Shown: piece by piece, positions 12,246 to 62,818 of the stretch
Numbering within the stretch: position 1 is the stretch's first letter
Layout of the letters: the number at the start of each line of letters is the position of its first letter
Source of the DNA: Patescibacteria group bacterium
GTDB taxonomy: Bacteria; Patescibacteriota; Doudnabacteria; UBA920; O2-02-FULL-48-8
Reading direction: 5' to 3'
NCBI GenBank assembly: GCA_036278915.1
Contig: DASUKB010000001.1
Location: 91,892 to 155,891, forward strand
Length of the DNA: 64,000 nucleotides
The notes under the pieces: generated by a model
Told to the model about the DNA's origin: nothing
Seen by the model: only the letters and a program-made list of their open reading frames with translations
The model's database searches: none
Program-made: the position numbers and the translations under genes

Positions 12246-12321
12246 CGTGCGGTTTTTTTGACACCCTAAGCGCTTTTTATATTTGTTTGCCAAGCCCTAG
12301 CAATGGTATAATTTTATCAGT

Positions 12322-12588: not shown

Positions 12589-12627
12589 TTATTTGCCAAG
12601 CCCTAGCAATGGTATAATTCTATCTGT

Positions 12628-12906: not shown

Positions 12907-12948
12907 ATGTAAATAATTATTTCGCCACCTAGGGTATATTCTATTGGC

Positions 12949-13221
12949 ATGAAGAAGAATATAATCATATTAATATTTCTTGTTGTGCTACCTACTGTAC
13001 TAGAATTGTTGCCGTTAAACCCAACGGATTATAGCAATAGGACCGCATACAGCCTTTTGACTGTGTCGTTGGTATCGAGCATATGGATATTTGTGCGTAC
13101 ATTAGCATATGAAAAATCTTGGACTAAGTACGCATGGGTAACTGTTTCAGTTATATCAATATTATTTTTTGTAACTTGGATATATATTGGCTACTCGCTG
13201 TCCCATATAGAAATAGGATAA
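12949..13221 (+). CDS. Small 3-TM protein, tandem paralog 3 (type B, C-term HIEIG)
   Basis: MKKNIIILIFLVVLPTV... Upstream GGTATATT -10-like box. Confidence 0.5.
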   Translation: MKKNIIILIFLVVLPTVLELLPLNPTDYSNRTAYSLLTVSLVSSIWIFVRTLAYEKSWTKYAWVTVSVISILFFVTWIYIGYSLSHIEIG

Positions 13222-13273
13222 ATTAAAAAAACAAAATAGCCGAAGGACTTTTTCTAAATTGATATCTAATATT

Positions 13274-13546
13274 ATGAAAATGAAAAGGAATATCTTGATT
13301 TTTATCTTTTTGGTAGTTCTGCCACTCGTTTTGGTAAAAATTATACCAAATCTTAGTAACGAATATAGCTTTGTTGCATTATCGATATCCATATTAGCGA
13401 GTATTTGGATAGTAATAAGGTCTATAAAATTACCAAGTTCCAAAATTAGAATTACTTGGATAATTATAGGAGCATTATTGGTAATTGTATTGAGTTTATA
13501 TTTTTGGCTTGCGTATGCTTGGGTCCATGCAGACTATATTTTATAA
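13274..13546 (+). CDS. Small 3-TM protein, tandem paralog 4 (type A, C-term WVHADYIL)
   Basis: The ORF-track start (13259) is a TTG. The ATG at 13274 (MKMKRNILIF...) aligns with the other copies. Confidence 0.5.
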   Translation: MKMKRNILIFIFLVVLPLVLVKIIPNLSNEYSFVALSISILASIWIVIRSIKLPSSKIRITWIIIGALLVIVLSLYFWLAYAWVHADYIL

Positions 13547-16690: not shown

Positions 16691-16762
16691 TTGCTTGCGT
16701 AAATATTTGAATAAAAACATCTGCTTGACCGCGGGTGTTTTTATTTGTGCTAATATAAATGT

Positions 16763-22647: not shown

Positions 22648-23982
22648 ATGAAACAAGAACAAAAATTCGACTTGATGGATAAAGTGATTAGTCTAGCAAA
22701 AAGGCGGGGTTTTATTTTTCCTGGAAGCGAAATTTATGGAGGGCTAGCCAACAGCTGGGACTACGGCCCGCTTGGCGTAGAGCTGAAAAATAATATCAAA
22801 AAACTTTGGTGGAAAATGTTTGTGCAGGAGCGCAGCGATATGGTAGGCATAGACGCAAGCTTGATTATGAACACAAAAGTCTGGGAAGCTTCGGGACACC
22901 TTCAAAACTTTACCGATCCGCTGGTGGAATGCAAAAAATGCCATACTCGATATCGGGAAGATCAGAAACCAGACGAATGTCCGGTTTGTGGTTTCAGCGA
23001 ATTCACACCAGCCCAGCAATTTAATTTGATGCTCAAAACATTTTTAGGACCAACGGAAGAGAAAGCCAATGAAGTCTTTTTTCGCCCGGAAACGGCTCAG
23101 GCGATTTTTGTAGACTTCAAACAGATTTTGGAAACTTCCCGCCAAAGAATTCCTTTCGGCGTGGCGCAGATTGGTAAAGCTTTCCGAAACGAAATCACTC
23201 CAGGCAACTTTATATTTCGCACGCGCGAATTTGAGCAGATGGAAATAGAATACTTCATCCAGGCTGAAGAATGGGAAAAACATTTTGAAAATTGGCTGAC
23301 GGAACTCAAAAAATGGATTAAGGCTGTGGGAATCGACGAGAAAAAAGTCCATTATGAAGAAATTGGCGAGGCTGACCGTGCATTTTATAGCAAGCGCACT
23401 ATAGACGTAGAATTTGAATACCCGTTTGGACAAAAGGAATTGTACGGCTTGGCTTATCGTACCGATTATGACCTGACTCAACATCAGAAATTTTCCGGCA
23501 AGGATTTGTCTTTCTTGGACCCAACGACAAACGAAAAATTCATACCGCACGTCATAGAGCCTTCGCTGGGCGTAGATCGTACTGTTTTGGCGGTATTGCT
23601 TTCATGTTATTCCGAATCCGAAGCGCGATCAGGCAAAGAAGATGCCGTGCACGAGACAGAAGTGACTTTGAGATTGCCGAAAAAAATTGCGCCAATCAAA
23701 ATCGCCGTGCTGCCGCTTTCCAAAAAAGACGAATTAACGGGTCCCGCGCACGAAATTGTAAATAGCTTGCACAAAACTTGGATGTGCCAGTATGATGAGA
23801 CAGCCTCAATCGGCAAGCGCTACCGAAGGCAGGACGAAATCGGCACGCCGTACTGCGTGACAGTGGATTTCGAAACCGCCAAAGATGAGTCGGTAACGGT
23901 GCGCGACCGCGACACCATGCAGCAGGATCGAATCAAAATTTCTGACTTGGAAAAATATTTTAAAGATAAATTGCAGCGCTGA
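22648..23982 (+). CDS. glyQS: Glycyl-tRNA synthetase, alpha2 (eukaryote/archaeal-like) type
   Basis: 444 aa, a single-chain class II aaRS with the FRNEITPGNFIFRTREFEQMEIEYF motif 2 region. Confidence 0.9.
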   Translation: MKQEQKFDLMDKVISLAKRRGFIFPGSEIYGGLANSWDYGPLGVELKNNIKKLWWKMFVQERSDMVGIDASLIMNTKVWEASGHLQNFTDPLVECKKCHTRYREDQKPDECPVCGFSEFTPAQQFNLMLKTFLGPTEEKANEVFFRPETAQAIFVDFKQILETSRQRIPFGVAQIGKAFRNEITPGNFIFRTREFEQMEIEYFIQAEEWEKHFENWLTELKKWIKAVGIDEKKVHYEEIGEADRAFYSKRTIDVEFEYPFGQKELYGLAYRTDYDLTQHQKFSGKDLSFLDPTTNEKFIPHVIEPSLGVDRTVLAVLLSCYSESEARSGKEDAVHETEVTLRLPKKIAPIKIAVLPLSKKDELTGPAHEIVNSLHKTWMCQYDETASIGKRYRRQDEIGTPYCVTVDFETAKDESVTVRDRDTMQQDRIKISDLEKYFKDKLQR

Positions 23983-24118
23983 ACTTGCATCCGCACCATT
24001 CGCTCGGCAAACTGTTTTTTCTGCGGCACGTCCGATTAACGGACTAAATTCTCTGCCTTTGGAATGGCCTCGAAGTTGCCTTGGAAAGAACAGTTTACCT
24101 CGCTGATACAGATTATTT

Positions 24119-25399
24119 ATGTCTATACCTTCTTTATATACCAAAAAGGTTCTCCAAAATGGTTTAACCTTGCTCATGGTGCCCATAGAGACGGCCTCGT
24201 CTGTAACGATGTCGATTTTTGTGAAAGTCGGCTCGCGCTACGAAGAAAAAAAGCTAAGCGGCATTTCTCATTTTTTGGAACACTTGCACTTCAAAGGTTC
24301 GCAAAAATTCCCTAGCGCCAAAAAACTTTCGGAGATCGTGGACTCAATCGGCGGCGAATTTAACGCCAACACTGGCAAGGAGCATACTCAATACTATATC
24401 CGCGCCGCATATGAGCATATGGATTTGGTGTTTAACGTGCTCACCGACATGCTTCAGCATCCGCTGTTTGCGGAAAAAGAAATCAACCGCGAGCGGGGAG
24501 TCATCATTGAAGAAATCAACATGTACAAAGACAATCCGCAGTTTAGCGTGGATACATTGTTTGAAGAAATGCTCTGGCCCAACCAGCCGCTGGGCCGCGA
24601 CATTCCCGGTACCGCTGATGTCATCTCTGCCATTTCGCGCAAAGATATTTTGCAGTACCGCGAAAAGTTTTATACGCCGGGGAATATGATTATTGCCGTG
24701 GCCGGACAATTTGACACACGCAAACTGGAAGATCTTGTGGCCAAATACTGGACCAAACTTCCCGGACACAAGAGCGCGACATTCAAACCCGCGGCGTCAA
24801 ATCAAAAACTGCCGCAGATACAGATTCAAACCAAAACTACGGAGCAGGCGTATATGATGCTTGGCTTCCATGGCTACTCGTACCGCAGTCGCAACAATGC
24901 AGCCCTAAGGATTCTATCCGCGGTTTTGGGCGGCGGCATGAGTTCCAGGCTTTTTTTGCGCATCCGCGAGCGCTTGGGTTTGGCTTACTATATCAGCACC
25001 TCCTTTAACAATTATTTGGATGCGGGTAATTTTGCAGTATCCGCAGGACTCAAAATCCAAAACGTCAATCAGGCCCTGCAAATTACGCTTGAGGAGTTGC
25101 GCAAAGTCCGCGATCACGGCATTTCCCGCGCGGAATTGGCCAAGGCCAAAGATTACATTAAGGGTAAAATCGCACTGGCTATGGAGGACCCGCACGACAA
25201 ATTGGAATGGTATCTCGGCCAGGAAGCATTCAATGGCAAAATCAAAACTATCAAGCAGTCGTTTGAAGAGCTGGATCGCGTAACGCTTCAACAGGTGGCC
25301 AAAGTTGGGCATGACATTATCCGCAATGAATGTATGAATTTGGCGTTGGTCGGACCATTTGAAGATAAATCCATTTTTGAAAAGAAACTAAAACTATAA
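24119..25399 (+). CDS. M16-family (insulinase/pitrilysin-like) zinc peptidase
   Basis: The inverted zinc motif HFLEHLHFKGS (HxxEH). Confidence 0.85.
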   Translation: MSIPSLYTKKVLQNGLTLLMVPIETASSVTMSIFVKVGSRYEEKKLSGISHFLEHLHFKGSQKFPSAKKLSEIVDSIGGEFNANTGKEHTQYYIRAAYEHMDLVFNVLTDMLQHPLFAEKEINRERGVIIEEINMYKDNPQFSVDTLFEEMLWPNQPLGRDIPGTADVISAISRKDILQYREKFYTPGNMIIAVAGQFDTRKLEDLVAKYWTKLPGHKSATFKPAASNQKLPQIQIQTKTTEQAYMMLGFHGYSYRSRNNAALRILSAVLGGGMSSRLFLRIRERLGLAYYISTSFNNYLDAGNFAVSAGLKIQNVNQALQITLEELRKVRDHGISRAELAKAKDYIKGKIALAMEDPHDKLEWYLGQEAFNGKIKTIKQSFEELDRVTLQQVAKVGHDIIRNECMNLALVGPFEDKSIFEKKLKL

Positions 25400-32053: not shown

Positions 32054-33490
32054 ATGGATATTGAACGCAAGAAATTTTATATTACAACTCCGATTTATTA
32101 TGTGAACGACAAACCGCACATAGGACACGCCTATACGACTATAGCCGCGGATGTTTTGGCGCGCCTTCACAGAAGTTTGGGCGAAGACGTTTTTTTCCTG
32201 ACCGGGACCGACGAGCATGGAGCCAAAATTGCCGCGTCCGCCGAAAAGGCAGGCAAATCGCCACAGGAATTTGTAGATGAAATCTCAGCGAAATATTCGC
32301 TGACCTGGGACCAGCTGGGTATTGCGCCCGACAAATTTATAAGGACCACCGATCCGGAACATTTGGACGCCGTAAAAGTCTTTTTGGAAAAACTGAAAGC
32401 TTCAGGCAAATTATATGAAGGCGAATACGAAGGCCTATACTGCATCGGTCACGAAGCATTTATCAAGGAATCGGAGCTGGTGAATGGCCTTTGCCCGGAG
32501 CATAAGACCAAACCTGAATTGGTCAAGGAGCAGAATTGGTTTTTTAAACTGTCCGATTACCAAAAAATTCTTGCGGAAAAAATTGAAGATGATGATATAT
32601 TGATCCGGCCGCAAACTCGAAAAAACGAAGTTTTGTCTTTCATACGACAAGGTTTGGAAGATATCGCAATTTCTCGCCCGAACGTAAAGTGGGGGATTCC
32701 TCTTCCCTGGGACGATAAGCAAACTGTCTACGTTTGGGTGGAGGCGTTGTTCAATTACTGCTCGGCCATAGGGTACGTCTCGGATCCCGAACAGTTCCAA
32801 AAATACTGGCCCGCCGACCTGCATATGGTTGGTAAAGAAATAATTAAATTCCATTGCATCATATGGCCGGCTTTACTTCTGGCCATAAAAGAAGAATTGC
32901 CCAAAGCAATTTTTGCAAACGGGTTTTTTACGATCAACGGCGAAAAAATCAGCAAAACAATCGGCAATGTCATAGACCCTACAGATTGGGCAGCCAAATA
33001 CGGCGCGGATGCTGTGCGCTACTTCGTGCTGCGCGAAGTGCCGTTTGGTCAGGATGGCGACGTCAGCGAAGACAAACTCAAGGCTCGCTATAACGGAGAT
33101 TTGGCCAATGGTTTGGGTAATTTGTTTTCGCGCACGACAAACATGATAGAGAAATATCTGGATGGCGATGTTGAGTCTTTGCAGAAGTCGCCGAAAGATC
33201 TGAATGATGCCTGGGAGGCATTCAATTCGCTGAATTTTTCCGAAGGCTTGGCCAGAATTTGGGAAGAGATTGCCTGGGCCAACCAGCTTATTGATCGTGC
33301 TAAGCCCTGGGACTTGGCGAAAACTGACCTGGAGAAAGTCAAAGAGTTGCTGGTGAATTTGGCGTCGTTGCTTTATGATATCGCGCAAAAACTGTCGCCG
33401 ATTATGCCGGAGGCTTCAAACAAGATCCGACAGGTCCTGGAGTCCGGCGATATAAAAAAGCCCGAACCGTTGTTTGCAAAAATTGATTAG
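32054..33490 (+). CDS. metG: Methionyl-tRNA synthetase (short form, no C-terminal dimerisation domain)
   Basis: HIGH-type motif PHIGHAYTTIAADVLAR, KMSKS-type motif KISKTIGN, and an anticodon-binding helical domain. Confidence 0.9.
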   Translation: MDIERKKFYITTPIYYVNDKPHIGHAYTTIAADVLARLHRSLGEDVFFLTGTDEHGAKIAASAEKAGKSPQEFVDEISAKYSLTWDQLGIAPDKFIRTTDPEHLDAVKVFLEKLKASGKLYEGEYEGLYCIGHEAFIKESELVNGLCPEHKTKPELVKEQNWFFKLSDYQKILAEKIEDDDILIRPQTRKNEVLSFIRQGLEDIAISRPNVKWGIPLPWDDKQTVYVWVEALFNYCSAIGYVSDPEQFQKYWPADLHMVGKEIIKFHCIIWPALLLAIKEELPKAIFANGFFTINGEKISKTIGNVIDPTDWAAKYGADAVRYFVLREVPFGQDGDVSEDKLKARYNGDLANGLGNLFSRTTNMIEKYLDGDVESLQKSPKDLNDAWEAFNSLNFSEGLARIWEEIAWANQLIDRAKPWDLAKTDLEKVKELLVNLASLLYDIAQKLSPIMPEASNKIRQVLESGDIKKPEPLFAKID

Positions 33491-33519: not shown

Positions 33520-33627
33520 GCTCGGGTCAGCATTTTTTCTCGGACACGTCCGCCTTGGCGGCGGATTAAAGTGCTCGACATTGGAAAGTCTCGCACGTTG
33601 TCCTCGAAAAATATGCCGACCCTCGCT
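33520..33627 (+). repeat. Conserved ~105-nt structured intergenic element, copy 1 (upstream of tatD)
   Basis: About 80-85% identical over ~105 nt to 43046-43148 and 51765-51872. Shared core TAAAGTGCTCGACATTGGAAGGTCTCGCACGTTGTCCTC. T6/A6 outer arms. An inner hairpin varies between copies with compensatory changes. Confidence 0.6.
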
Positions 33628-42687: not shown

Positions 42688-42965
42688 GGCAAACAAAAAG
42701 ACCATGCACAAATTACGTTGCATGGCCTTTGGGCAATTGCTTGGGAGTGATACGTACTTCCGTGATTTTTTTGCCGTCGGGTGTGCGGAAATCAAGGAAT
42801 ACTCCCGGATTGTTGCGGTAAGCTTCCCTTACGAATTCAATATCCATTTCTTGCCTGTGCCACCGATGCCAGAAAACAATTCTCGTCTCCACAGAATCCT
42901 CCTTGCAGGTTAAATATAGTCATTTCACAAAAATTGTAAAGGCTAGTACAATACTTTCGGATCGG

Positions 42966-43039
42966 CGGGGTGTAGTATACCGGTAGTACGCGCCCATGGG
43001 GTGGGTGTAGACCGGGTTCAATTCCCGGCATCCCGACCA
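42966..43039 (+). tRNA. tRNA-Pro (anticodon GGG), CCA encoded
   Basis: Acceptor CGGGGTG/CATCCCG (C1:G72, typical of bacterial tRNA-Pro). U8 A9. D-arm GTAT/GTAC. Anticodon stem CGCCC/GGGTG with loop ATGGGGT. T-arm CCGGG-TTCAATT-CCCGG. Discriminator A plus CCA. Confidence 0.75.
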
Positions 43040-43045
43040 AAATAC

Positions 43046-43148
43046 GCTCGGACATCAGTTTTTTTCGGACACGGCCGCTTCGGGCGGCCTAAAGTGCTCG
43101 ACATTGGAAGGTCTCGCACGTTGTCCTCAAAAAACTGCTGTCCTCGCT
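43046..43148 (+). repeat. Conserved ~105-nt structured intergenic element, copy 2 (downstream of tRNA-Pro)
   Basis: Aligns with the 33520-33627 and 51765-51872 copies. The inner hairpin GGCCGC-ttcgg-GCGGCC has a UUCG-like loop. A classical terminator (43154-43180) follows directly. Confidence 0.6.
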
Positions 43149-43153: not shown

Positions 43154-43180
43154 AAAAAAACCACTTCGGTGGGTTTTTTT
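43154..43180 (+). terminator. Intrinsic terminator with UUCG tetraloop (potentially bidirectional)
   Basis: AAAAAAACCAC-TTCG-GTGGGTTTTTTT. Confidence 0.7.
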
Positions 43181-43244
43181 CGTTTGCAAGCAATTATGTT
43201 TTCGTTTATACTTAAACAAAGGAAAATTAACCTAAACCTCTCAA

Positions 43245-45027: not shown

Positions 45028-47574
45028 ATGTTTGAAAATAAAGAAATTGCTGATTCACAGTTTGACTTTGACCAGTTTTTCAACAAATCAAATCTCAACC
45101 CACATCTCTACGAAATTTTGCAGGCCCTTACAGACGGGGTTATAGTTCAGGATCGCATGCGAAAGGTTTTGTTTGCCAACGAAGCCGGCGCGCATATGAT
45201 GGGCTTTCGAACAGCCAATGAAATTTTGGAGCGGCCGGTTTCCAATTCCGTGGGCAAGTTTGAAATCATGGATGAAAATGGCAACGCGCTGGATCTGGAT
45301 CATCTGCCGGCGCAAGTGGTGCTAGACGGCGCCGAAATTTGCACCAAAATTATGTTTAGCAAAAACCGAGAGACAGGCGTGGGGATCTGGTCGGAAGTTA
45401 AGGCACGTGCCATCCGCGACGAGGACGGATCGGTGAAGTTTGCCGTAAGTTTGTTTCGCGACATCACCTCGGAGAAGCTAATCCAAGCCGAATACGAACG
45501 CAGCAACCGCCGGAGCCAGCACATTTTGGAAAGCATTACCGACGGCTTTTTTGCGTTTGATAAAAATTGGAATTTCACTTACATCAACAAAGCCGCGGAG
45601 CAGTTTCTGGACCGGTTGCGCGAACAACTCTTGGGTAAAAATCTTCTGGAAGAATTCAAAAATGTCGGACAGAACGAGGCATTTATAAGACTCAAAACGG
45701 CGGCGGAAAAGGGAGAAACCATCCGGTTTGAGCAGCAGTCGCGGCAAGGATTGTGGTTTGAGTTGTCGCTTTATCCGTCCCGGGACGGATCTTCGGTGTA
45801 TTTCCGCGAAATTACGGACAAGAAAAAATCCGAAGAGTATAACCTCAAGCTCCTGGCAAGCGAGGAGCGCTACCGGGCCATGATTGAGAATTCATCCGAC
45901 GGCATTGTTATGCTTAATGCCGATGGCACTATAACTTATGTTACGCACCCAATCGAACGAATTTTGGGATTTTCCGAGCAGGAAATCGTCGGTATGGTGG
46001 CTTTTGATCTCATCCACCCAGAGGATTTACCTCTGGTAATGGAAATTTTTGGCAACATGCTAAGAGCCCCGAATGCTACTAGTTCGGCGCAATTCCGCGC
46101 CCGACACAAAGATGGCACCTACCGCTGGATTGAGGGCGTGGGAACTAATCTTTTGCAGCATCCGAGCATTCAGTCTATAGTTGCCAATTTCCGCGATGTT
46201 TCGCAGCGCAAAAAAGCCGAGGACACGCTTGCTTACCATTACCAGCACGATGTACTTACGGATTTGCCCAACCGGACGTATCTGACGTCCAGGTTTGCAG
46301 AAAGCCTGCAGGAGTCCGATCGTGCGCGCAAGTCCGTGGCGCTTATGCTCATTGATTTGGACAGATTTAAGCAGATCAACGAATCTCTGGGGCACGCCCT
46401 CGGTGACCGCCTGATCCAGGAGGTAAGTTTGCGGCTTCGGGCGTGCATGAGTGAATCATGCGTTTTGGCGCGCTTGGGCGGAGATGAATTTGGCATTCTG
46501 ATCTGCAACCTGGAGCGGGAAGAGGATGAAGTGGCGAAACTTTGCAACAAGATTCTGGAGGATTTCAAGCCAGCATTTTATTTGGATGCGCACGAACTTT
46601 ATATAAGCCCCTCGATTGGCATTTCGCTGTACCCTTACGATGGCCGCGAGCCGGCTATGCTTTTCAAAAACGCAGAGACCGCGCTCTACCGCGCCAAAGA
46701 TTACGGCCGCAACACGTACCAGTTCTACACGCAAACTATGAACGCCACGGCCTACGAACGCCTGGCTATGGAGTCTAAACTTCGACATGCCATAGAGAAT
46801 AATGAGTTGGTGCTGTTTTATCAACCGCAAATTGAAGTGGTCTCGGGCAAAATTGTGGGCGCTGAAGAACTTATCCGCTGGCAGCAGCCGGACGGAAGAT
46901 TGGTGGCGCCGGATCGGTTCATACCTCTGGCCGAAGCCAATGGACTCATCGAACCCATAGGCGAATTTGTCTTGCAACAATCTTTAATCCAGGCAAAAAT
47001 TTGGCATGACGCTGGGTTTAAGCTGATTATCGCGATCAATCTTTCCGCGCGGCAGTTTAAGCAGAAAAATTTTGAAAAAATTCTCACAAATATAATTGAA
47101 GAATCGCAGCTTGATCCAAAGTTCATCGAGCTTGAGCTGACAGAAACCGTGCTGGCGGAAAACCAAGACACCGTGTTTGGAATTATGAACGGCTTGCGCG
47201 GCCGCGGCGTGCGGTTCTGCCTGGATGATTTTTCAACCGGTTACTCGTCGCTTAAATACCTCAAACAGTTTCCGGTGGACATGCTCAAAATCGAGCGCAA
47301 CTTTATGAAGGGCATCCCAGGCGACATCCAAAACGCGGCCATCGCCAAATCAATCATTACGCTTGGCCAGTCACTCGGCATGGAAGTCACGGCCGAGGGA
47401 GTGGAATCCAAACGCCAGCTGGAATTTTTGCGCGATAATCTTTGCAACCGCGCGCAAGGGTATCTTTTCAACGGCGCCATGCCGGCGCATAGCCTGTCTG
47501 AAATCCTCGGAGAACACCGGTATTTGTCCGTGGTAAAAAATTTGGACAACCAACCCAAGGCTGGACGCCCCTGA
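45028..47574 (+). CDS. Multi-PAS sensor diguanylate cyclase/phosphodiesterase (PAS-PAS-PAS-GGDEF-EAL)
   Basis: GGDEF site RLGGDEFGIL. EAL domain motifs (EELIRW, QPQIE, ELTE, DDFSTGYSSL, KIERNF). Confidence 0.85.
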   Translation: MFENKEIADSQFDFDQFFNKSNLNPHLYEILQALTDGVIVQDRMRKVLFANEAGAHMMGFRTANEILERPVSNSVGKFEIMDENGNALDLDHLPAQVVLDGAEICTKIMFSKNRETGVGIWSEVKARAIRDEDGSVKFAVSLFRDITSEKLIQAEYERSNRRSQHILESITDGFFAFDKNWNFTYINKAAEQFLDRLREQLLGKNLLEEFKNVGQNEAFIRLKTAAEKGETIRFEQQSRQGLWFELSLYPSRDGSSVYFREITDKKKSEEYNLKLLASEERYRAMIENSSDGIVMLNADGTITYVTHPIERILGFSEQEIVGMVAFDLIHPEDLPLVMEIFGNMLRAPNATSSAQFRARHKDGTYRWIEGVGTNLLQHPSIQSIVANFRDVSQRKKAEDTLAYHYQHDVLTDLPNRTYLTSRFAESLQESDRARKSVALMLIDLDRFKQINESLGHALGDRLIQEVSLRLRACMSESCVLARLGGDEFGILICNLEREEDEVAKLCNKILEDFKPAFYLDAHELYISPSIGISLYPYDGREPAMLFKNAETALYRAKDYGRNTYQFYTQTMNATAYERLAMESKLRHAIENNELVLFYQPQIEVVSGKIVGAEELIRWQQPDGRLVAPDRFIPLAEANGLIEPIGEFVLQQSLIQAKIWHDAGFKLIIAINLSARQFKQKNFEKILTNIIEESQLDPKFIELELTETVLAENQDTVFGIMNGLRGRGVRFCLDDFSTGYSSLKYLKQFPVDMLKIERNFMKGIPGDIQNAAIAKSIITLGQSLGMEVTAEGVESKRQLEFLRDNLCNRAQGYLFNGAMPAHSLSEILGEHRYLSVVKNLDNQPKAGRP

Positions 47575-49301: not shown

Positions 49302-49360
49302 AAATAAAAAAGACCCACAAGCGGCACACACTTTCGTGTGTACACACTCATGGGACGTGA

Positions 49361-49762
49361 TTACGACCGGGTCTTCGGGAAAATTCCGGTCTCGATGCGT
49401 ACGAAGCCTTCTTCGGTCTGCTTCAGTATCAAATCGCAATGTTTGGACTTCTCCAGTCCTCCGAAGTAGGTCATAATTCCGATGGCCACCAGCTCTTCCG
49501 GTGTTGTCTTGCATCTGGTTGACAAGTCCGCCAGCATATCCGCCGCTTCATTCTTCACGTTGACCAGGATCGTGGTATCACCCGTGCTTGGGTGTAGCAG
49601 GAAGGGAAAAATTTCATCGCTATCCCGATCTTCCCAGTACAAGGGCTTGCCTACGATTTCCTGTTGCTTGCCGAGCAGGACAGCGCTCATAGCGTTCGAG
49701 ATTGTTTTTGAATCTCGGAGTTTGGCTTTCTGTTCCTGAGAAACTGCCACAACAAGTCTCAT
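49361..49762 (-). CDS. Hypothetical protein, GC-rich two-gene cassette, gene B
   Basis: The internal ATG (M19 of the ORF-track entry) carries a GGAGG SD. The longer ORF start would overlap the upstream repeat/terminator. No family recognised. Confidence 0.4.
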   Translation of the reverse strand: MRLVVAVSQEQKAKLRDSKTISNAMSAVLLGKQQEIVGKPLYWEDRDSDEIFPFLLHPSTGDTTILVNVKNEAADMLADLSTRCKTTPEELVAIGIMTYFGGLEKSKHCDLILKQTEEGFVRIETGIFPKTRS

Positions 49763-49834
49763 ATCTTCCTCCGTTAAAGAAAGACCCGCAAGCGGCACAC
49801 ACTTTCGTGTGTACACGCCTGCGGGTCGCGATCG

Positions 49835-50640: not shown

Positions 50641-50669
50641 TTGACGCGCGATGCAAAACCTGTTATTAT
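50641..50669 (+). promoter_or_regulatory. Sigma70-like promoter of the str operon (TTGACG-17-TATTAT)
   Basis: Consensus-like hexamers with a 17-nt spacer, ~90 nt upstream of rpsL. Confidence 0.5.
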
Positions 50670-50756: not shown

Positions 50757-51170
50757 ATGCCTACCATAAATCAGCTTGTCCGACACGGACGCACCAAATC
50801 AGTATATAAATCAAAGTCTCCAGCCCTGGAGCGCGTTTATAATTCGCTCAAAGGCGAGAACTACAACGTCGCCAAAGGTTCGCCGTTTAAGCGCGGCGTC
50901 TGTATAAAAGTCTCTACTATGACGCCGAAGAAGCCAAACTCGGCTATCCGCAAATTCGCCCGTGTGCGCTTGAGCAACGGCATGGAAGTCAACGCCTACA
51001 TCCCAGGGATAGGCCACAACTTGCAGGAGCACAGCGTGGTTATGATCCGCGGCGGCCGCGTGAAAGATTTGCCAGGTATGCGCTACCACATCGTAAGAGG
51101 CAAACTTGATGCCGGCGGAGTAGAAGGAAGAAAGAGATCAAGATCTAAATACGGAGCAAAGAAAAGTTAA
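50757..51170 (+). CDS. rpsL: 30S ribosomal protein S12
   Basis: [12 protein letters not shown]...[18 protein letters not shown]. The ORF-track start at 50670 is an upstream extension. Confidence 0.95.
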
Positions 51171-51245
51171 ATTGACCTAACTACTAATTGATCTAATTTC
51201 TAAACTTTAGGTCAATTAGAAATTAGTAATTAGAAATTTTATTTT

Positions 51246-51764
51246 ATGCCACGCAAAGCCAGATCATATGACCGCCATCCAGTGGATGCGGATCACAAAT
51301 ACAACAGCGTTAAGCTGTCTAAGTTTATAAACTACGTTATGACTCGCGGCAAAAAGACTGTTGCCGCTAAAGTCGTGTACGATGCCTTGGATATAATCGC
51401 AAAAGGAGCAACTCCCGCCGAAGGCGGATCCGCCTCCGGCGGAAAAGCCGACCCAAAGGTTTTGTTTGAACAGGCGGTACGGAATGTCTCGCCGATTTTG
51501 GAAGTTAAAGGCCGCCGCATCGGCGGTGCCAACTACCAGGTGCCTATGGAAGTTCAGGAGCCGCGCAAAACTACGCTTGGTATGAAATGGATTATAGACG
51601 CGGCCCGCGCCAAAAAGGGAAAACCCATGGCGGAAAAATTGGCATCCGAACTTATGGAAGCCTACAACAAAACCGGTTCGGCCATCAAAAAGCGCGAAGA
51701 CGTACACAAAATGGCTGAAGCCAACAAGGCTTTTGCGCATTTCGCAAGATTCCAGAGACGGTAG
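51246..51764 (+). CDS. rpsG: 30S ribosomal protein S7
   Basis: [22 protein letters not shown]...; carries an internal insertion ([17 protein letters not shown]). Confidence 0.9.
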
Positions 51765-51872
51765 ATCGCTCGGTCAGAAATTTTTTGTCGGACACGCCCG
51801 CTTAGGGCCGGCTAAAGTGCTCAACATTGGAAGGTTTCGCACGTTGTCCTCCAAAAAATTTCTGCCCTCGCT
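51765..51872 (+). repeat. Conserved ~105-nt structured intergenic element, copy 3 (rpsG-fusA spacer)
   Basis: Aligns with the other two copies. It carries the GAC:GTC to AAC:GTT compensatory change in the central helix and fills the usually short rpsG-fusA spacer. Confidence 0.6.
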
Positions 51873-51893
51873 AATAAACAATTTTAAAATTAC

Positions 51894-54026
51894 ATGGCCA
51901 GAGAATACTCATTAGAAAAAACCAGGAATATCGGAATTATTGCCCATATCGACGCCGGTAAGACCACGACTACCGAGTCTATTTTGTTTTACACGGGAAA
52001 AATTCACAAGATCGGCGAAGTCCACGAAGGCAACACGGCTATGGACTGGATGGAACAGGAACGCGAGCGCGGCATTACTATTACCGCGGCGGCCACGACT
52101 TCGTTTTGGTCCACCTCATTACAAAACGGCGGGGCTTCGCCTGACACACACCGCATAAACATCATAGATACTCCCGGCCACGTGGACTTTACGGTGGAAG
52201 TGGAACGGTCTTTGCGCGTGCTCGATGGCGCGATCGTAGTATTTGACGGCAAAATGGGTGTGGAGCCGCAGTCGGAGACCGTCTGGCGGCAGGCGGATAA
52301 ATATTCCGTGCCCCGTATGTGCTTTATAAATAAAATCAACCAAACTGGCGGGGATTTTTACAAGTCTCTGGATGCCATCCATAAGCGCTTGTCACCGAAC
52401 GCCTTTCCAATCCAACTTCCTATCGGATTTGAAAAAGACATCGTCGGCATTGTGGATTTGGTGAAGATGAAATCCTACACCTACAAAGAACATAAAGATA
52501 AGGGATTCACCGAGGGCGAAGTGCCGGCGGACATGGCTGAAAAAACAAAAGAGTATCGCATCAAACTCGTGGAAAAAGTCGTGGAAACCGATGACGCGCT
52601 TATGGAAAAATATCTGGCGGGACAGGAAATTTCAAATGACGAACTTATGAAAGCTATCCGCGCCGCAACCCTCACCGGCAAATTTTACCCGGTGCTGGGA
52701 GGTGATGGTCGGGGACTTATCGTAACCACGCTTCTGGACGGGGTAGTAAATTATTTGCCATCACCGTTGGACAAGCCTCCGGTTAAAGCCGTTGACATCA
52801 AAACCGGCGAGGAAATTTTACTGACGCCCAAAGACAGCGACAAATTTGTTGCGCTGGCGTTTAAGATTGCCACTGACCCATTTGTCGGGAAACTGGCGTT
52901 CTTCCGTGTTTACACAGGCACTCTTTCAGCCGGGTCATACATCCTCAACACTCGCTCTGGTAACAAGGAGCGTGTTGGACGATTGGTGCGTCTGCACGCG
53001 GACTCGCGCGAAGAAGTTAAGGAAGTTTATTCCGGAGATATTGCCGCACTAGTCGGGCCGAAAGATACTTTCACTGGCGACACGCTTTGCGACGCGGAGC
53101 ATCCGATCCAGCTAGAATCCATTAAATTTCCGGAGCCGGTTATTTCTGTCGCAATTGAGCCTAAGACCAAAGCCGACCAGGAAAAAATGGGCTTGGCTTT
53201 GCAGAAATTGGCGGAAGAAGATCCAACTTTCCGCGTCTCAACTGATGAGGAAGTCCAACAGACACTTATATCCGGAATGGGCGAATTGCATTTGGAAATT
53301 CTGGTGGATCGTATGAAACGAGAATTTAAAGTGGAAGCTAACGTCGGTAAACCGCAAGTGGCGTACAAAGAAACGATCAAGGGAAAATCCGAAGCCGAAG
53401 GCAAATACATCCGTCAGACCGGCGGCCGCGGCCAATATGGCCATGTTTATATTCGCATTGAACCGCAGGATGATCCCACCAAAGGCAATGAGTTTGTAAA
53501 CGAAATCGTGGGCGGTGTAATTCCCAAAGAATACATCAAACCGGTCGAAAAAGGCATTGCCGAAGCTGAAGACCGCGGGGTTATCGCAGGATTTCCGGTG
53601 CTCAATATCAAAACAACATTGTACGATGGTTCTTACCACGAAGTTGACTCCTCCGAAATCGCGTTTAAAATCGCAGGCTCAATGGCTTTCCAGGATGCAG
53701 TTAAAAAAGCCAACCCGATACTGCTGGAGCCGATTATGAAAGTTGAGGTCACAACTCCGGAGTCGTCCATGGGCGACGTTATTGGCGACCTTAACGCCAA
53801 GCGCGGCAAGATTTTGGAAATGACAGACCGCGGCAATCTCAAAATTATAGACGCAGAAGTGCCTTTGGCTGAAATGTTTGGCTACGCTACGCAGATTCGA
53901 TCCATGTCGCAAGGCCAGGCTTCCTATACCATGGAATTTCACCATTACGAAGAAGTTCCGCGCAATGTGGCGGAAAAAATCATTGGCGAGTCAGGTAAGA
54001 TCCGCGTCGGACAAGTTGGGAAATAA
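51894..54026 (+). CDS. fusA: Elongation factor G
   Basis: [23 protein letters not shown] and the domain IV/V motifs. 710 aa. Terminator at 54038-54062. Confidence 0.95.
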
Positions 54027-54037
54027 TTGTTAAATTA

Positions 54038-54062
54038 TCCCCGCGAAAGCGGGGATTTTTTT
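54038..54062 (+). terminator. Intrinsic terminator after fusA
   Basis: TCCCCGC-gaaa-GCGGGGA plus TTTTTTT. Confidence 0.75.
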
Positions 54063-54125: not shown

Positions 54126-54692
54126 CTAACGAAAAATTTCCGGGATTTCTATTGAGGAGATTGTTTCGCTTATAAATTTCGCTGCCTCTTGGACGGATTT
54201 TTCCAAGCCGCCGGGCTTAAAAGAATTTTTGATTACCAAATCAAATTGCAGATTGGATTGTTTTTCGCGTTCGTCATCCGCCTTTTCGCGCACCAGACTG
54301 CGGTCCAATTCCCAATCGCGGTCCGGAATAACTTTTATAAGCACCAGATGATAACCTTGAGCTCGCAGTGTGGGCACAGTGCTTTCTATGATTGCAAATA
54401 TGCCACAGTGGGAAATCAAACATTCGTCCAGGTTTTGTCTTTCGTATATGTAATGGTTGCCGCTATAGATTTCGTGGCTCAAGAATCCTGCTTGGTTTTG
54501 CCGGTCTTGCGCATACGCTTCGTCCACAAATTTATAAAAAAGATCATCGTAGTCGTCGCGTCTGGGCCTGGTGGACGTGGATTTAATAATTTGTAGGTGC
54601 GGTAAAAAGTTCAGAAGCTCTATCATAATGGTGGTTTTGCCAGAGCCGGATGCGCCTATAAACGCAAAAATTATATGTTTTTGGTTAGTCAT
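54126..54692 (-). CDS. Guanylate-kinase-like P-loop NTPase
   Basis: Walker A GASGSGKTT. STSTRPRRDDYDDLFYKFVDEAY...YSGNHY resembles the GMP-binding region of Gmk. Inserted between fusA and tuf on the opposite strand. Confidence 0.5.
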   Translation of the reverse strand: MTNQKHIIFAFIGASGSGKTTIMIELLNFLPHLQIIKSTSTRPRRDDYDDLFYKFVDEAYAQDRQNQAGFLSHEIYSGNHYIYERQNLDECLISHCGIFAIIESTVPTLRAQGYHLVLIKVIPDRDWELDRSLVREKADDEREKQSNLQFDLVIKNSFKPGGLEKSVQEAAKFISETISSIEIPEIFR

Positions 54693-54774
54693 ATAATATT
54701 TATAGCAAAAAGAAAACGGCTCGGATAGCTCGAGCCGTTAATAACGGCGAGTCCGGTCGGATTCGCTGTATTCG

Positions 54775-54963
54775 TTAGATCTTCTGGCCGAATTTTGCCA
54801 GGTACTTCTGGCGGCAATCACTGCAACCGCCGCGCAGATCACGGACGTGAGTGACGGCCCTGCCAGGAAGCACTGGCTTGAGGCCGTAGTAGCGCGGGCA
54901 CTTCTCGGTGAACTTCACGAGAGCAGTAAGCTTCGCGGAATTCAGGCCAGGCTCGTGATCCAA
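54775..54963 (-). CDS. Small hypothetical protein (possibly longer, non-canonical start) in GC-rich insert
   Basis: The open frame extends upstream to ~55080 without an ATG/GTG. The Cys-containing C-terminus reads CPRYYGL...GGCSDC. Confidence 0.2.
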   Translation of the reverse strand: MDHEPGLNSAKLTALVKFTEKCPRYYGLKPVLPGRAVTHVRDLRGGCSDCRQKYLAKFGQKI

Positions 54964-55104
54964 GACAGCGTCTTCGTCCTTTTTGTAGGTCTCCTGTTCC
55001 TGCTGTTTCAGGATTTCCAGGTAGACATTACTACTTTGGCTCCGAAAGTTCTTGAGCCTCGTACGAGCACTGCTGATATCAGTTTGTCTCGACAGATGAT
55101 CCTC

Positions 55105-55305
55105 CTATTGGAATGAAAGCCGGGCAGCGTACCCGAGGGCTGCTGCTGTGATCAGTAGGGAGAAGTAGAACGCCCTGATGATCAATCGGGGATGTTGAAC
55201 GTAGAAGTCGCGGCCAGCGGTCCCCAGGTGTGCCATGTGATAAAGCACAAATCCCAAAAGGATCATGACCGAGGCTGGGATAACGATAAGACAAACCCTT
55301 GCCAT
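55105..55305 (-). CDS. Small 2-TM hypothetical protein in GC-rich insert
   Basis: 66 aa with a GGAGGG SD. GC-rich relative to the flanks. Confidence 0.3.
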   Translation of the reverse strand: MARVCLIVIPASVMILLGFVLYHMAHLGTAGRDFYVQHPRLIIRAFYFSLLITAAALGYAARLSFQ

Positions 55306-55626
55306 AAACCCTCCGGTCCTACTTGTTTAAATAATTATGTTACCACCTGGAGGATTAGTCAAACGAGTATTCCGACAAGACTTTATCCACAACCCTTGAG
55401 GGACTTTACAATGTTAGTCAAATGCTTTATAATCTTAAAGCGTTTCAAATTAATTTATTAGCAGTTTTAAGCTCGGCGTCATCCTGATCTTGGCCAAATA
55501 CCAAAGTCGATAGGGTATTGGGCTAAGGATTCGGGAAGACTGGATACCACTTAGAGACTGCTTAAAAGGGATTTAGCCCTTCACTCCAAGGTTGAGAGAG
55601 GTTATAGTCCTGAAAGGAAGAAGCAA

Positions 55627-57378: not shown

Positions 57379-57430
57379 ACATGGTTTAGATTGGATTGAT
57401 CCCCGAGGATATCGCCAGTCACACGAAGCA

Positions 57431-57475
57431 CCATTCAGGCTTCTTGTTTCCGGGATCCTGAATGGTTTTTTGTTT
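57431..57475 (+). promoter_or_regulatory. Terminator-like hairpin between rpsJ and rplC (possible S10-operon attenuator)
   Basis: CCATTCAGG...CCTGAATGG 9-bp stem, then TTTTTTGTTT. Confidence 0.4.
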
Positions 57476-57488: not shown

Positions 57489-58097
57489 ATGTCAAAATTT
57501 CTGATGGCTGAAAAACTGCATATGTCGCAAATCTTTACCCCCGACGGTAAGGTTGTTCCGGTCACAATTCTTAAGGCTTCACCAAACAAGGTAACTCTTG
57601 TACGAAGTTTGGAAAAAGACAAGTATCAGGCAGTGCAGGTCGGATTTGGGCGCCGCAAAAAAGCTACCAAAGCTTTAGCTGGCCACACTAAGGAGCTTGG
57701 CAAATTTGCGCACCTTTCCGAATTCCGCGTGGATGATTCTTCCAAATTCAGCCGCGGCCAGGAGATTACAGTGGCGACATTTGCTGTGGGTGATAAGGTT
57801 AAAGTAACCGGCGAAATGAAAGGCCGGGGATTTGCCGGACCGATTAAGCGCCACGGTTTCCACGGAGCACCGGCTTCGCACGGTCACGATCACCCGCGAG
57901 CCGTGGGAGCAATCGGCGGCAGGTTTCCGCAGCACGTGCGCAAAGGCTTGCGCATGGCGGGGCACATGGCAGGTATTCGTACCGTTAAAAATTTGGAAGT
58001 CGTGGAAATAGACGCCAAGCGCAACCTCATAGCGGTCAAGGGCGCGGTGCCGGGCGCGCCGGGAAATGTTGTCAGGATACAGTTGTCCCTAAAGTAA
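57489..58097 (+). CDS. rplC: 50S ribosomal protein L3
   Basis: ...MSQIFTPDGKVVPVTIL...; the ATG at 57489 is preferred because the ORF-track start at 57462 lies inside the hairpin. Confidence 0.9.
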   Translation: MSKFLMAEKLHMSQIFTPDGKVVPVTILKASPNKVTLVRSLEKDKYQAVQVGFGRRKKATKALAGHTKELGKFAHLSEFRVDDSSKFSRGQEITVATFAVGDKVKVTGEMKGRGFAGPIKRHGFHGAPASHGHDHPRAVGAIGGRFPQHVRKGLRMAGHMAGIRTVKNLEVVEIDAKRNLIAVKGAVPGAPGNVVRIQLSLK

Positions 58098-58774
58098 TGT
58101 TTATAATTGCGCATCGCGGGGCTTCGGGACTTGAACCTGAAAACACCCTCCGTTCCTTCAAAAAAGCCGAAGAACTCGGCGCCGATCTCATCGAACTCGA
58201 TGTGCGAATTTCCAAAGACGGTGAATTGGTCATAAGCCACGATGCTGATATGTTGCGGCTGTTTGGTGATCCAAGATTGCTCAAACAACTTCCGCTTTCC
58301 GAGATCAAGCGAATAAGCGCTTTGCACAACCGGGAAATCCCAACACTTGCGGACGTAATTGCAAACGTAAATCGCGATTTGAATATTCATATCAAAAATC
58401 ACGGTATCGAGCGCCAAGTCTTGGAAGCTATAAAAAGTTTTCCGCACAGGGTCCTGATTTCCTCCACCTTTCCAGGGGTGCTTAAGAAGATCAGAGCTTT
58501 GGATGGAAAAATTGATCTGGGATTGATTATCGGACGAGGGGAACTCCACCTTTTGCCGGTTGCCAATTTCCTGACCCGAAATATCGGACTTTACTCAATT
58601 CATCCAAAAGCCACAATTATATCTTTGCCTATCGTAAAATTATTTAAACTTTCCGGACGCAAGGTTAATGTGTGGACAGTGAATACAAAAGAAGAATTTA
58701 TAAGAATGCAACGCTTGGGCGTGGACGGCATTATCACCGACCACCCGGAGCTTATGAAAATTTATGGCAATTAG
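58097..58774 (+). CDS. Glycerophosphodiester phosphodiesterase (GDPD family) inserted in the S10 operon
   Basis: IIAHRGASGLEPENTLRSFKKAEELGADLIELDVRISKDGELVISHD. Overlaps the rplC stop by 1 nt (TAATG) and rplD by 11 nt. Confidence 0.8.
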   Translation: MFIIAHRGASGLEPENTLRSFKKAEELGADLIELDVRISKDGELVISHDADMLRLFGDPRLLKQLPLSEIKRISALHNREIPTLADVIANVNRDLNIHIKNHGIERQVLEAIKSFPHRVLISSTFPGVLKKIRALDGKIDLGLIIGRGELHLLPVANFLTRNIGLYSIHPKATIISLPIVKLFKLSGRKVNVWTVNTKEEFIRMQRLGVDGIITDHPELMKIYGN

Positions 58775-59415: not shown

Positions 59416-59856
59416 ATGAGTATTATAGACCGCATCAAAGGCAAGAAGGACGAAGCTCCGAAGAAAGCTTCCAAGAAATCCCCGAAAAAGCAAGAGGATG
59501 TTTTGTCCATGGTTCAGGAAGAAACTCCGACTGCGGAAAAAACCGAGACGGTGCTAAAAGAGGACACCGGCCGCGCGCATCATATCCTTTTAAATTATCA
59601 CTTGTCGGAAAAATCCAACCTTTTGTCTACTTTCGGTCGCTATGTGTTTAAGGTTTCGCGACATGCCAACAAGCTTGAGGTTCGAAAGGCGGTGGAAAAG
59701 GTATATGATGTACATGTCGTGAGCGTAAATATCGTTCGCAGCCGCGGCAAGGTTCGCAGATCGGGACGAGTTGTCGGCAAAACTTCCGACTGGAAAAAAG
59801 CTTATGTGACTCTTAAAGAAGGAGAAAAGATCAGCGGGTTAGCAGAAGGAGTATAA
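59416..59856 (+). CDS. rplW: 50S ribosomal protein L23 with ~50-aa Lys-rich N-terminal extension
   Basis: The core HILLNYHLSEKSN...KLEVRKAVEKVYDVHVVSVNI follows the extension KGKKDEAPKKASKKSPKKQ. Confidence 0.85.
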   Translation: MSIIDRIKGKKDEAPKKASKKSPKKQEDVLSMVQEETPTAEKTETVLKEDTGRAHHILLNYHLSEKSNLLSTFGRYVFKVSRHANKLEVRKAVEKVYDVHVVSVNIVRSRGKVRRSGRVVGKTSDWKKAYVTLKEGEKISGLAEGV

Positions 59857-59882
59857 ACAGTTTTTAATTACTAATTTCTAAG

Positions 59883-62138: not shown

Positions 62139-62801
62139 ATGGGACAGAAGGTTAACGCCAACAGCTTAAGACTTAACATTACCGATACTTGGAAATCCAG
62201 GTGGCTTTCCAAAACCAACTTTTCCAAATTTTTGGAAGAGGATACGCGAATCCGGGCATTCCTGTCAAAGGAACTTAAAAAAGCCGGACTGGTCAGAATT
62301 GATATCGAGCGTTTTGCCAATACTACTGCCATCACCATAAAGACTACAAAGCCAGGCATGATTATCGGCAAAGGCGGCGGCGGGATTGAAGACCTCAAGA
62401 AAAAGTTGGCCAAACACCTTGGTTACAAGCTAGATGTTAAGATCAATATTGAAGAAGTGCGGGACGTCAACTTGCAGGCACAGGTAATCGCCCAAGACAT
62501 AGCAGACCAGATCGAGCGCCGTATAGCATTTCGCCGCGCCATGAAGCAGTCTATTGAACGGATAATGGAAGCCGGTGCTTTGGGAGTGAAGATTGAATGC
62601 GCGGGCCGCCTGGGAGGCGCAGAAATTGCGCGCACTGAGCGGTTGTTTAAGGGAAAGCTGCCTTTGCATACCCTGCGGGCCAATATTGACTTTGCTCGGA
62701 TCACAGCCTACACCACTTATGGAACAATAGGTGTGAAGGTTTGGATCAATAAAGGCGAAGTGTTTGCACAAGGAAAGCCCGGAAAAATTTCTAATTCCTA
62801 A
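62139..62801 (+). CDS. rpsC: 30S ribosomal protein S3
   Basis: MGQKVNANSLRLNITDTWKSRW... and the KH-like and C-terminal domains. Confidence 0.97.
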   Translation: MGQKVNANSLRLNITDTWKSRWLSKTNFSKFLEEDTRIRAFLSKELKKAGLVRIDIERFANTTAITIKTTKPGMIIGKGGGGIEDLKKKLAKHLGYKLDVKINIEEVRDVNLQAQVIAQDIADQIERRIAFRRAMKQSIERIMEAGALGVKIECAGRLGGAEIARTERLFKGKLPLHTLRANIDFARITAYTTYGTIGVKVWINKGEVFAQGKPGKISNS

Positions 62802-62818
62802 TTTCTAATTGACCGATT

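Follow-up and report, generated by a model that had tools for sequence, protein, structure and literature searches.

The spacer between rpsG and fusA in the 64-kb window analysed here (the whole 64,000-nt stretch of DNA, from a Patescibacteria group bacterium) holds a 105-nt structured element, designated c3. We conclude, with a probability of roughly 55%, that c3 is one copy of a mobile, co-transcribed structured repeat resembling the REP and Correia families, and that the effect of its RNA is generic rather than operon-specific. It did not evolve as a means of fixing the S7-to-EF-G ratio.

The rpsG–fusA spacer measured 129 nt (51765-51893). A first-pass annotation of this DNA had described it as enlarged to about 130 nt by a structured element, and this description held. 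The element runs from GCTCGG to CCTCGCT (covariance model score 119 bits), starts 3 nt past the rpsG stop and ends 21 nt ahead of the fusA ATG; the interval annotated earlier, 51765-51872, is c3 plus the 3 nt past the stop. Its minimum free energy was -38.2 kcal/mol, against -25.7 +/- 3.3 kcal/mol for dinucleotide shuffles (z = -3.8), and none of 200 shuffles was as good. The S7 protein encoded here was 100% identical to that of a "Patescibacteria group bacterium" metagenome-assembled genome, with Candidatus Doudnabacteria as the nearest named relatives. Judging by the position of the promoter-like site, c3 would sit inside an rpsL-rpsG-fusA transcript. The surrounding features were as follows.

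50641..50669, + strand: promoter-like site 5' of rpsL, TTGACG-17-TATTAT with TG (consensus match only)
50757-51170, + strand: rpsL
51246..51764, + strand: rpsG (ribosomal protein S7), the gene 5' of c3; PF00177; stop codon TAG ends at 51764
51768..51872, + strand: copy c3
51873..51893, + strand: linker between c3 and the fusA start, 21 nt (AAUAAACAAUUUUAAAAUUAC), AU-rich, unstructured, with no Shine–Dalgarno (SD) sequence
51894..54026, + strand: fusA (EF-G), the gene 3' of c3; ATG at 51894; Pfam annotation of orthologues
54037..54056, + strand: terminator-like hairpin plus T7 run 3' of fusA (sequence scan)

Repeat finding, alignment and a covariance model together detected four copies in the window (c1 to c4). 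The first-pass annotation had called c3 the third copy of a conserved element; c1 and c2 bear out that others exist, but the count was one short, as the model, built from c1, c2 and c3, added the diverged copy c4 (69 bits, E = 4e-15). The pattern GCTCGG-N80-110-CCTCGC matched the window five times, versus 0.19 matches expected, and four of these matches were the copies. The fifth (45860-45979, minus strand) was rejected as a chance match, lying within a coding region with unpaired ends. The model found no further copy in a 6.8-kb leftward extension of the source contig. A supposed tRNA 3'-end remnant to the left of c4 (GCATCCGCACCA, compared with GCATCCCGACCA of tRNA-Pro) was not significant, since 127 of 2000 shuffles scored as well. 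The other three copies and the features adjoining them were located as follows.

24002..24104, + strand: copy c4, between a class II aminoacyl-tRNA synthetase gene (22648-23982) and a peptidase M16 gene (24119-25399); 19 nt past the stop, 14 nt before the ATG
33520..33627, + strand: copy c1, between metG (32054-33490) and tatD (ATG at 33641); 29 nt past the stop, 13 nt before the ATG
42966..43039, + strand: tRNA-Pro(GGG), forming one unit with c2; promoter-like site upstream at 42924-42952
43046..43148, + strand: copy c2, 6 nt past the encoded CCA of tRNA-Pro(GGG), 5 nt before a terminator hairpin
43154..43181, + strand: hairpin A7-CCAC-UUCG-GUGG-G-U7 after c2, likely a two-way terminator; read off the sequence and not listed by a simple terminator scan

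All copies shared one common minimum-energy fold, a closed rod formed by a repeat of about 102-108 nt that is bounded in every copy by the motifs GCUCGG and CCUCGCU. The closing helix consists of a 2-bp clamp, a symmetric UC:UC loop and a GG/CC step, which make up the invariant GCUCGG...CCUCGC (CUCG/CUCG). Inward of GG/CC there follow a 7-9-bp stem whose sequence differs from copy to copy and a U5-6 tract paired with A5-6. The inner part comprises a second UC:UC loop, the helix GGACA/UGUCC (P2) and a three-way junction made of hairpin P3, the linker UAAA and hairpin P4, the last with its own UC:UC loop and an AUUGGAAR cap. In c3 these parts were assigned as follows.

51768..51787, + strand: P1 5' strand (GC, UC loop, GG, variable stem, U-tract); pairs with 51852-51871
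51790..51794, + strand: P2 5' strand, GGACA; pairs with UGUCC at 51845-51849
51796..51812, + strand: P3 hairpin, variable in sequence, with compensatory changes among copies
51813..51816, + strand: junction linker UAAA, identical in 9/9 distinct copies
51817..51842, + strand: P4 hairpin, GUGC-UC-AAC / GUU-UC-GCAC, loop AUUGGAAG
51852..51871, + strand: P1 3' strand (A-tract, variable stem, CC, UC, GC)

The UC before P2 in c3 faces the UC at 51850-51851 as a symmetric 2x2 loop, and a G-C to A-U change in P4 relative to c1 and c2 is compensatory. Together, P1 and P2 form a duplex of about 27-30 bp with 2x2 loops, a length and rod shape that would suit an RNase III processing hairpin, which takes some two turns or more of dsRNA; cleavage is a prediction.

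The repeat was then traced in other genomes. A strict core pattern gave no matches in genome and metagenome contig collections, from which the source genome is missing. Relaxed patterns, which bias the search toward the conserved core, followed by the covariance model yielded five further distinct copies. Two (L007 and L009) came from Candidatus Doudnabacteria RIFCSPHIGHO2_12_FULL_48_16, both on the minus strand together with minus-strand genes: one between tpiA and rpiB (5 nt past the stop, 11 nt before the ATG) and one after a ribonucleotide reductase gene (5 nt past the stop, 13 nt before the next start). Two more were on a single 11.9-kb contig with nine tRNA genes (L008; DATJFX010000024.1, labelled Candidatus Methylomirabilota), L008a 6 nt past tRNA-Pro(CGG) and L008b 5 nt past tRNA-Arg(CCU). 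This contig is probably mis-binned and carries the Doudnabacteria-type element twice. The fifth, L014, lay beside a tRNA-Met on the opposite strand, at a distance of 7 nt from its 5' end. In total, four of the nine distinct copies were within 7 nt of a tRNA gene. In addition, a relative with 80% S7 identity (L004) contained two elements of a second subfamily, which have the GCUCGG...CCUCGCU ends and the closed three-way-junction shape in common with the repeat, while their core is unrelated.

L004, 12760-12866: second-subfamily element, beginning at or overlapping the fusA stop codon; a terminator follows
L004, 16583-16692: second-subfamily element, 3 nt past rpsJ

Collections of viral contigs, phages and plasmids gave no match. 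As far as sampled, the repeat is confined to a small group of Candidatus Doudnabacteria-like Patescibacteria. The first-pass annotation had reasoned that uniform read-through coverage and the same element at many unrelated loci would point to a neutral repeat insertion, and the element does occur at synthetase–M16, metG–tatD, tRNA-Pro, tpiA–rpiB, ribonucleotide reductase and tRNA-Arg loci.

We compared filled with empty sites at the orthologous junctions of related genomes. Synteny around c1 and c4 was kept in relatives. There, metG and tatD overlap (ATGA in L029, TAATG in L031-33) versus a distance of 150 nt in the window, and the synthetase and M16 genes are 9 nt apart in L031 versus 136 nt. 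Between rpsG and fusA, relatives had 4 nt (L018-L025), 54 nt (L016/17) or an AT-rich hairpin of 96-100 nt (L001-L006). Given these lengths, the spacer in the window can be called expanded only in a relative sense. The covariance model detected no element in the rpsG–fusA spacer of 20 related loci, including L001-L006 and L016-L027; the comparison of related genomes that the first-pass annotation had proposed thus found no conservation of the element at this position. In the closest relatives, it was absent from all three orthologous protein-gene junctions, which were overlaps or short or AT-rich spacers. L008a and L008b agreed almost completely over the span that begins with G(C/U)UCGG and ends with CCUCGCU but had unrelated flanks, which defines the copied unit. 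From these comparisons we infer that copies arise by insertion at gene junctions that are overlapping or very short in relatives, and 5-7 nt from tRNA ends. Separately, part of the tatD 5' end was found duplicated in the metG–tatD spacer of L030 (9923-10000; ATGTTGTTTGATACTCATACTCACGT), in front of the true start.

The fold is conserved through compensatory change, which is evidence of selection for a fold. In an alignment of the nine distinct copies, fitted to the model, 94.3% of cells were paired, versus 79% in column shuffles and 40-50% when partners were slid by 1-3 columns. Both-sided changes were present in 17 of 36 pairs; the variable part of P1 covaried (alignment columns 7-14 with 94-101), and in P3 (helix 2) four of seven pairs had changed on both sides. 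L008a and L008b had five differences, four of which convert two adjacent P3 pairs (A-U to G-C, C-G to U-A); the fifth turns C-G into U.G. The terminal motif, the junction nucleotides and P2 were invariant or nearly so, and the P4 loop had 0.07-0.11 differences per site. Freely changing were the variable part of P1 (0.57 differences per site), the P3 stem (0.38) and the P4 stems (0.31). Because REPIN hairpins, too, commonly show compensatory changes (PMC3116915), this covariation shows a selected fold, not an RNA function. Of the neutral repeat insertion envisaged in the first-pass annotation, the repeat insertion therefore stands, but "neutral" is too strong for an element whose fold is kept by compensatory changes.

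Of the 10 copies that were informative on orientation, nine lay in the sense direction relative to the flanking gene or tRNA, on both strands of the DNA, and this position and orientation suggest that the repeat is transcribed within the host mRNA or tRNA precursor. We propose that it inserts at gene junctions and beside tRNA genes and would then be co-transcribed with the host unit. With the fold closed on itself as a rod, the AU-rich leader of the downstream gene (11-21 nt) would stay free, and so the repeat would be tolerated even before fusA, which is essential and SD-less. A stable hairpin 0-5 nt past many stops and 5-6 nt past the tRNA CCA could block 3'-to-5' exonucleases such as PNPase, the gene for which is in the window (10-1863). 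The interrupted duplex of about 27-30 bp is a plausible substrate for a double-strand endonuclease of the RNase III type, as in Correia elements (CREE) and phage T7. Transcript processing, one of the alternatives raised in the first-pass annotation, would be the RNA-level effect that we favour, as a generic property of a co-transcribed repeat. The invariant asymmetric ends, common to two subfamilies whose cores differ, are the likely recognition sites and the best candidates for what is bound by whatever copies or cuts the repeat.

Insulation of the start region by the fold was considered and dropped, since the native element lowered the opening energy only slightly relative to shuffled inserts, 20-38% of which were as good in five of six cases, and was about equal to its deletion. 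In the sixth case (L009) the shuffled inserts did better on average than the native sequence. The repeat does no harm to the modelled opening of the start, with no positive sign of insulation. At fusA, opening the initiation region (-15 to +12) was computed to cost 4.2 kcal/mol with c3, 4.0 kcal/mol with c3 deleted and 5.7 +/- 2.0 kcal/mol with a shuffled insert. The first-pass annotation was right that no SD sequence precedes fusA, none being present in the 21-nt linker. As an SD-like GGAG/GAGG/AGGA motif at -20 to -4 was carried by only 15 of the 59 open reading frames (ORFs) in the window, an SD-less start is the norm here.

Several points weigh against the reading of c3 as a mobile co-transcribed repeat. 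The sample is small (nine distinct copies plus the two in L004). Mobility is deduced solely from the difference between filled and empty sites, for which many independent losses would be an alternative, though an unlikely one. The 11 copies had no terminal inverted repeat (TIR) and their flanks no target-site duplication (TSD), and a Pfam scan of ORFs adjoining copies found no transposase. The antisense strand was predicted to fold more stably in 11/11 copies, as tandem GA/AG loops replace UC/CU, and choosing the strand by folding energy was therefore abandoned. This leaves the strand argument to gene orientation and to the sense-strand count of 7 G.U versus 2 A.C, which mildly favours the sense strand as the selected one. 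Any transcription of L014 would probably be antisense. The roles as RNase III substrate and exonuclease barrier are argued by analogy only. The invariant junction and loop nucleotides and P2 suggest a sequence-specific partner, beyond the needs of a passive hairpin. That invariance is itself partly an effect of ascertainment, the copies outside the window having been retrieved by patterns demanding the termini, UAAA and UUGGAA, so unbiased support for the invariant positions comes from the four window copies. These were found without the UAAA requirement, and the diverged c4 keeps all invariant positions.

Comparison with known families placed the repeat in familiar company without matching any of them. 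A scan of the whole window against Rfam 15 at gathering thresholds returned only a tRNA. At E <= 10, c3 had no match, and c4, the L011 copy and the L004 copy had only chance matches far below gathering. A literature search for a described repeat or RNA motif in candidate phyla radiation (CPR) bacteria or Doudnabacteria found nothing relevant. Small structured co-transcribed intergenic repeats of the REP, ERIC and Correia type are known, and the repeat fails the defining tests of MITEs (miniature transposable elements with inverted repeats) and REPINs. What is distinctive is the three-way junction with invariant unpaired nucleotides, the CUCG/CUCG loops, the near-uniform sense orientation and the placement near tRNA ends.

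A MITE has a TIR of at least 10 bp. Here, GCTCGG and CCTCGCT match as an inverted repeat only at GC..GG, and the long stem inside the ends differs in sequence between copies. The repeat does share the multi-copy, non-coding character of MITEs with presence/absence polymorphism (four copies in 64 kb; empty sites at three junctions). Two inverted REP units, as in a REPIN, were not present, P3 and P4 being unrelated and the core asymmetric. The hairpin kept by compensatory changes is a REPIN feature, but one that does not discriminate, because functional RNAs share it. No intrinsic terminator (GC-rich hairpin plus U-tract) was present at the window copies. A ribosomal-protein leader of the str operon would recur at the same operon position in relatives, and the repeat did not do so in L001-L006 and L016-L027. 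For a riboswitch or cis-acting leader, the downstream features are a disparate set (tatD, peptidase M16, fusA, rpiB, a NUDIX gene, a tRNA or a terminator), and the start is unsequestered.

Other candidates were set aside individually. For an integron attC site, R'' fitted only in c3 and R' (GTTRRRY) was lacking. Hammerhead and other ribozymes, Y RNA, SRP RNA and 5S RNA were considered from shape and had no Rfam support. A K-turn requires a 3-nt bulge, which is absent. P2 loosely resembles a Ro-binding helix, and no relationship is claimed.

REP elements stabilise upstream mRNA against 3' exonucleases. REPs and REPINs are believed to travel in folded single-stranded form, as the repeat might. 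Like the repeat, they are short extragenic palindromes of high copy number, have hairpins kept by compensatory changes (PMC3116915) and lack a TIR/TSD signature. Unlike it, a REPIN pairs two REPs in inverted orientation on either side of a spacer, bears the conserved 5' motif of REPs and accompanies a lone RAYT gene that such elements flank, whereas the core of the repeat is non-symmetric (P3 differs from P4) and has invariant unpaired nucleotides. The Correia elements of Neisseria (CREE or NEMIS) are likewise multi-copy intergenic insertions of about 100-150 nt with a long RNA hairpin and filled/empty polymorphism, and their co-transcription with adjacent genes is frequent. RNase III binds the CREE hairpin and either cleaves or protects it (PMC2649163). 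CREE differ in that they have 26-bp TIRs and duplicate a TA target, contain promoter as well as IHF sites and occur in both orientations, in contrast to the 6-7-nt asymmetric ends, lack of duplication, internal three-way junction and almost uniform sense of the repeat, for which RNase III action is a prediction only. The RNase III signals of the phage T7 early region are also a set of related, loop-interrupted hairpins between cistrons of one transcript. Once these signals are cleaved, the upstream mRNA ends in a 3' hairpin that protects it. They are phage-encoded, fixed in position and not mobile. Cleavage of the repeat in this manner is a working model. ERIC/IRU, BOX, RUP and other small MITE-like bacterial repeats are transcribed non-coding intergenic repeats with predicted RNA structure, termed "small mobile sequences" and reviewed as varied in their structural and functional motifs (PMC2229807, PMC3049150). 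These are families of Proteobacteria and Firmicutes with no sequence relationship to the repeat, and their descriptions mention neither a three-way junction with CUCG/CUCG closure nor a preference for sites 5-6 nt past a tRNA CCA.

Tentatively, and with clearly less confidence, the element may represent a new class in CPR bacteria, a three-way-junction element with invariant CUCG/CUCG loops that is either a deployed functional module or a mobile element lacking TIR and TSD. As a module placed at gene junctions and tRNA 3' ends, it might be a processing or insulation signal, or a stable tRNA-linked RNA with a dedicated protein partner. As a mobile element, it might target sites a few nucleotides from tRNA-like stems. 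Under both options, the unpaired conserved nucleotides would mark a specific recognition factor.

We consider it doubtful that the repeat is purely selfish DNA of the REP/REPIN type or an IS200/IS605 derivative, moved as a folded single strand by an HUH/tyrosine transposase encoded elsewhere, with no role for the RNA. The asymmetric ends with no TIR or TSD and the precise copy unit fit this explanation, and the orientation bias could follow replication instead of transcription. It would also accommodate the more stable bottom strand with tandem G.A/A.G motifs, the compensatory changes known from REPIN hairpins (PMC3116915), the orientation of L014 against its neighbouring tRNA and the two subfamilies that share only their ends. 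However, a non-exhaustive search of the available DNA, which for the source genome came to 64 kb plus 7 kb, turned up neither a RAYT nor a Y1 transposase, and the repeat is not built of two inverted REPs and lacks the GTAG-type motif of the REP 5' end. A three-way junction with invariant unpaired nucleotides is foreign to known REP, REPIN and IS200 ends. The excess of G.U over A.C on the sense strand (7 to 2) also speaks against it, though G.T is tolerated in DNA hairpins.

Somewhat less likely still is a stable tRNA-linked small RNA, in which the tRNA-Pro copy would be the functional one, released by tRNA processing to bind a partner, and the intercistronic copies, including c3, would be secondary duplicates. 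The partner (protein or RNA) would be bound via the invariant junction and the AUUGGAAR loop, and the invariance of these unpaired nucleotides while the stems covary is in keeping with this. In addition, c2 lies in a self-contained unit (promoter-like site, tRNA-Pro, element, terminator), the arrangement of tRNA-Pro, 6 nt and an element with nearly the same P1 recurs in a second genome (L008), and the four of nine copies close to tRNA genes point the same way. On the other hand, the L004 subfamily keeps the termini and architecture but not the core, the core invariance stems partly from pattern-based retrieval, and no Rfam model matched, including those of Y RNA, 6S and SRP. This explanation also leaves the insertions between overlapping genes unaccounted for.

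The first-pass annotation had suggested that the spacer element might modulate expression of S12/S7 relative to EF-G/EF-Tu, or terminate the transcript. A cis-regulatory RNA of the str operon, tuning EF-G translation or attenuating rpsG–fusA transcription, for example as an S7-binding autoregulatory site, is very improbable. E. coli S7 does regulate the str mRNA at an intercistronic site, and with c3 placed 3 nt past the rpsG stop and 21 nt before fusA, a terminating ribosome would melt the outer P1. Yet the element is absent from the rpsG–fusA spacer of all relatives fetched and present at unrelated metabolic, synthetase and tRNA loci, which argues against control of that ratio. The predicted fold contained no alternative pairing between c3 and the fusA start codon, and folding with the start-codon context, as proposed earlier, left the start unsequestered (4.2 vs 4.0 kcal/mol, no predicted effect on accessibility). 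Termination at c3 does not fit either: no U-tract follows its stem, the terminator scan listed no site at any window copy, and the terminator-like site of the operon comes after fusA (54037-54056). The sequences 3' of P1 were AAUAAAC in c3, AAUUAAA in c1, GAUACAG in c4 and UCUAGAA in c2.

A self-cleaving ribozyme or other catalytic RNA, spread like twister, hammerhead or hatchet, is scarcely plausible: the compact three-way junction with invariant junction nucleotides, the multiple copies and the invariant ends would suit one, but no Rfam ribozyme matched at E <= 10 except a chance 15-bit CPEB3 hit in the L004 copy (gathering 35), and the junction strands (C, UAAA, GU) are unlike the hammerhead core.

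CPR/Patescibacteria genomes are about 1 Mb in size and tightly packed, with many overlapping genes. Insertions of 100-150 nt wedged between formerly overlapping genes, even before fusA, would mean that such compact genomes tolerate or exploit structured insertions, and that SD-less initiation in them withstands a very stable hairpin only 11-21 nt upstream. Should the element prove to act in RNA processing or stability, or as a small RNA linked to tRNA, it would be among the first lineage-specific structured RNAs defined in CPR bacteria, and its invariant nucleotides would indicate an as-yet unseen binding factor. The case also advises looking for other copies before reading operon-specific regulation into a structured spacer.

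Another structured repeat was observed in the RIFCSPLOWO2_01_FULL_44_21 lineage of Doudnabacteria. An unrelated 156-nt repeat in L018 (17890-18045 and 19272-19427; also in L019-L021 and L023), 98% identical between copies, fills the S19–L22 and S3–L16 spacers up to the start codons. As this too is in a ribosomal-protein operon, such structured insertions seem to be a recurring habit of Doudnabacteria.

Intergenic hairpins rich in AT, with the motif TAATTTCTAA / TTAGAAATTA as their basis, were present in the window at 51171-51245, 4282-4307, 59856-59881 and 62783-62808, and recur 5' of many genes, among them rpsG and rplB. In the closest relatives, they occupy the rpsG–fusA spacer (L001 2959-3055, L004 10538-10633, L006 10517-10616), which in the window holds the GC-rich element. 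These hairpins may form another family of repeats or leaders, AT-rich in this case.

The S7 protein in the window is 172 amino acids long, versus 161 in most Doudnabacteria; the surplus is a low-complexity insert, and close relatives have 171-183 amino acids. Between fusA and tuf, the window has a minus-strand guanylate-kinase-like gene (54126-54692) and a 934-nt non-coding stretch (54693-55626), where relatives have small hypothetical minus-strand ORFs. The tuf gene apparently has its own promoter-like sites and its own terminator.

In the S10 operon, a GDPD (glycerophosphodiester phosphodiesterase) gene (58097-58774) lies between rplC and rplD; the same arrangement was found in L001, L004, L006 and L016, but not in L018. 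The rpsJ–rplC spacer (57379-57461) contains the conserved sequence GATCCCC.AGGA.ATCGCCAGTCA...GGCTTCTT...GGGATCC, shared with L004 at about 16720-16800. It had no Rfam match at gathering thresholds and may be a conserved rplC leader. Elsewhere in the window, a 56-nt repeat (49306-49361 and 49777-49832, 84% identical), with the palindrome GGCACACACTTTCGTGTGTAC, lies beside two minus-strand hypothetical genes without a Pfam match. Finally, four tandem units of about 306-331 bp each at 12262-13311, with a similar small-ORF start (ATGAAGAAGAATA...), have the appearance of arrayed paralogues that encode small proteins of the secreted or membrane type.

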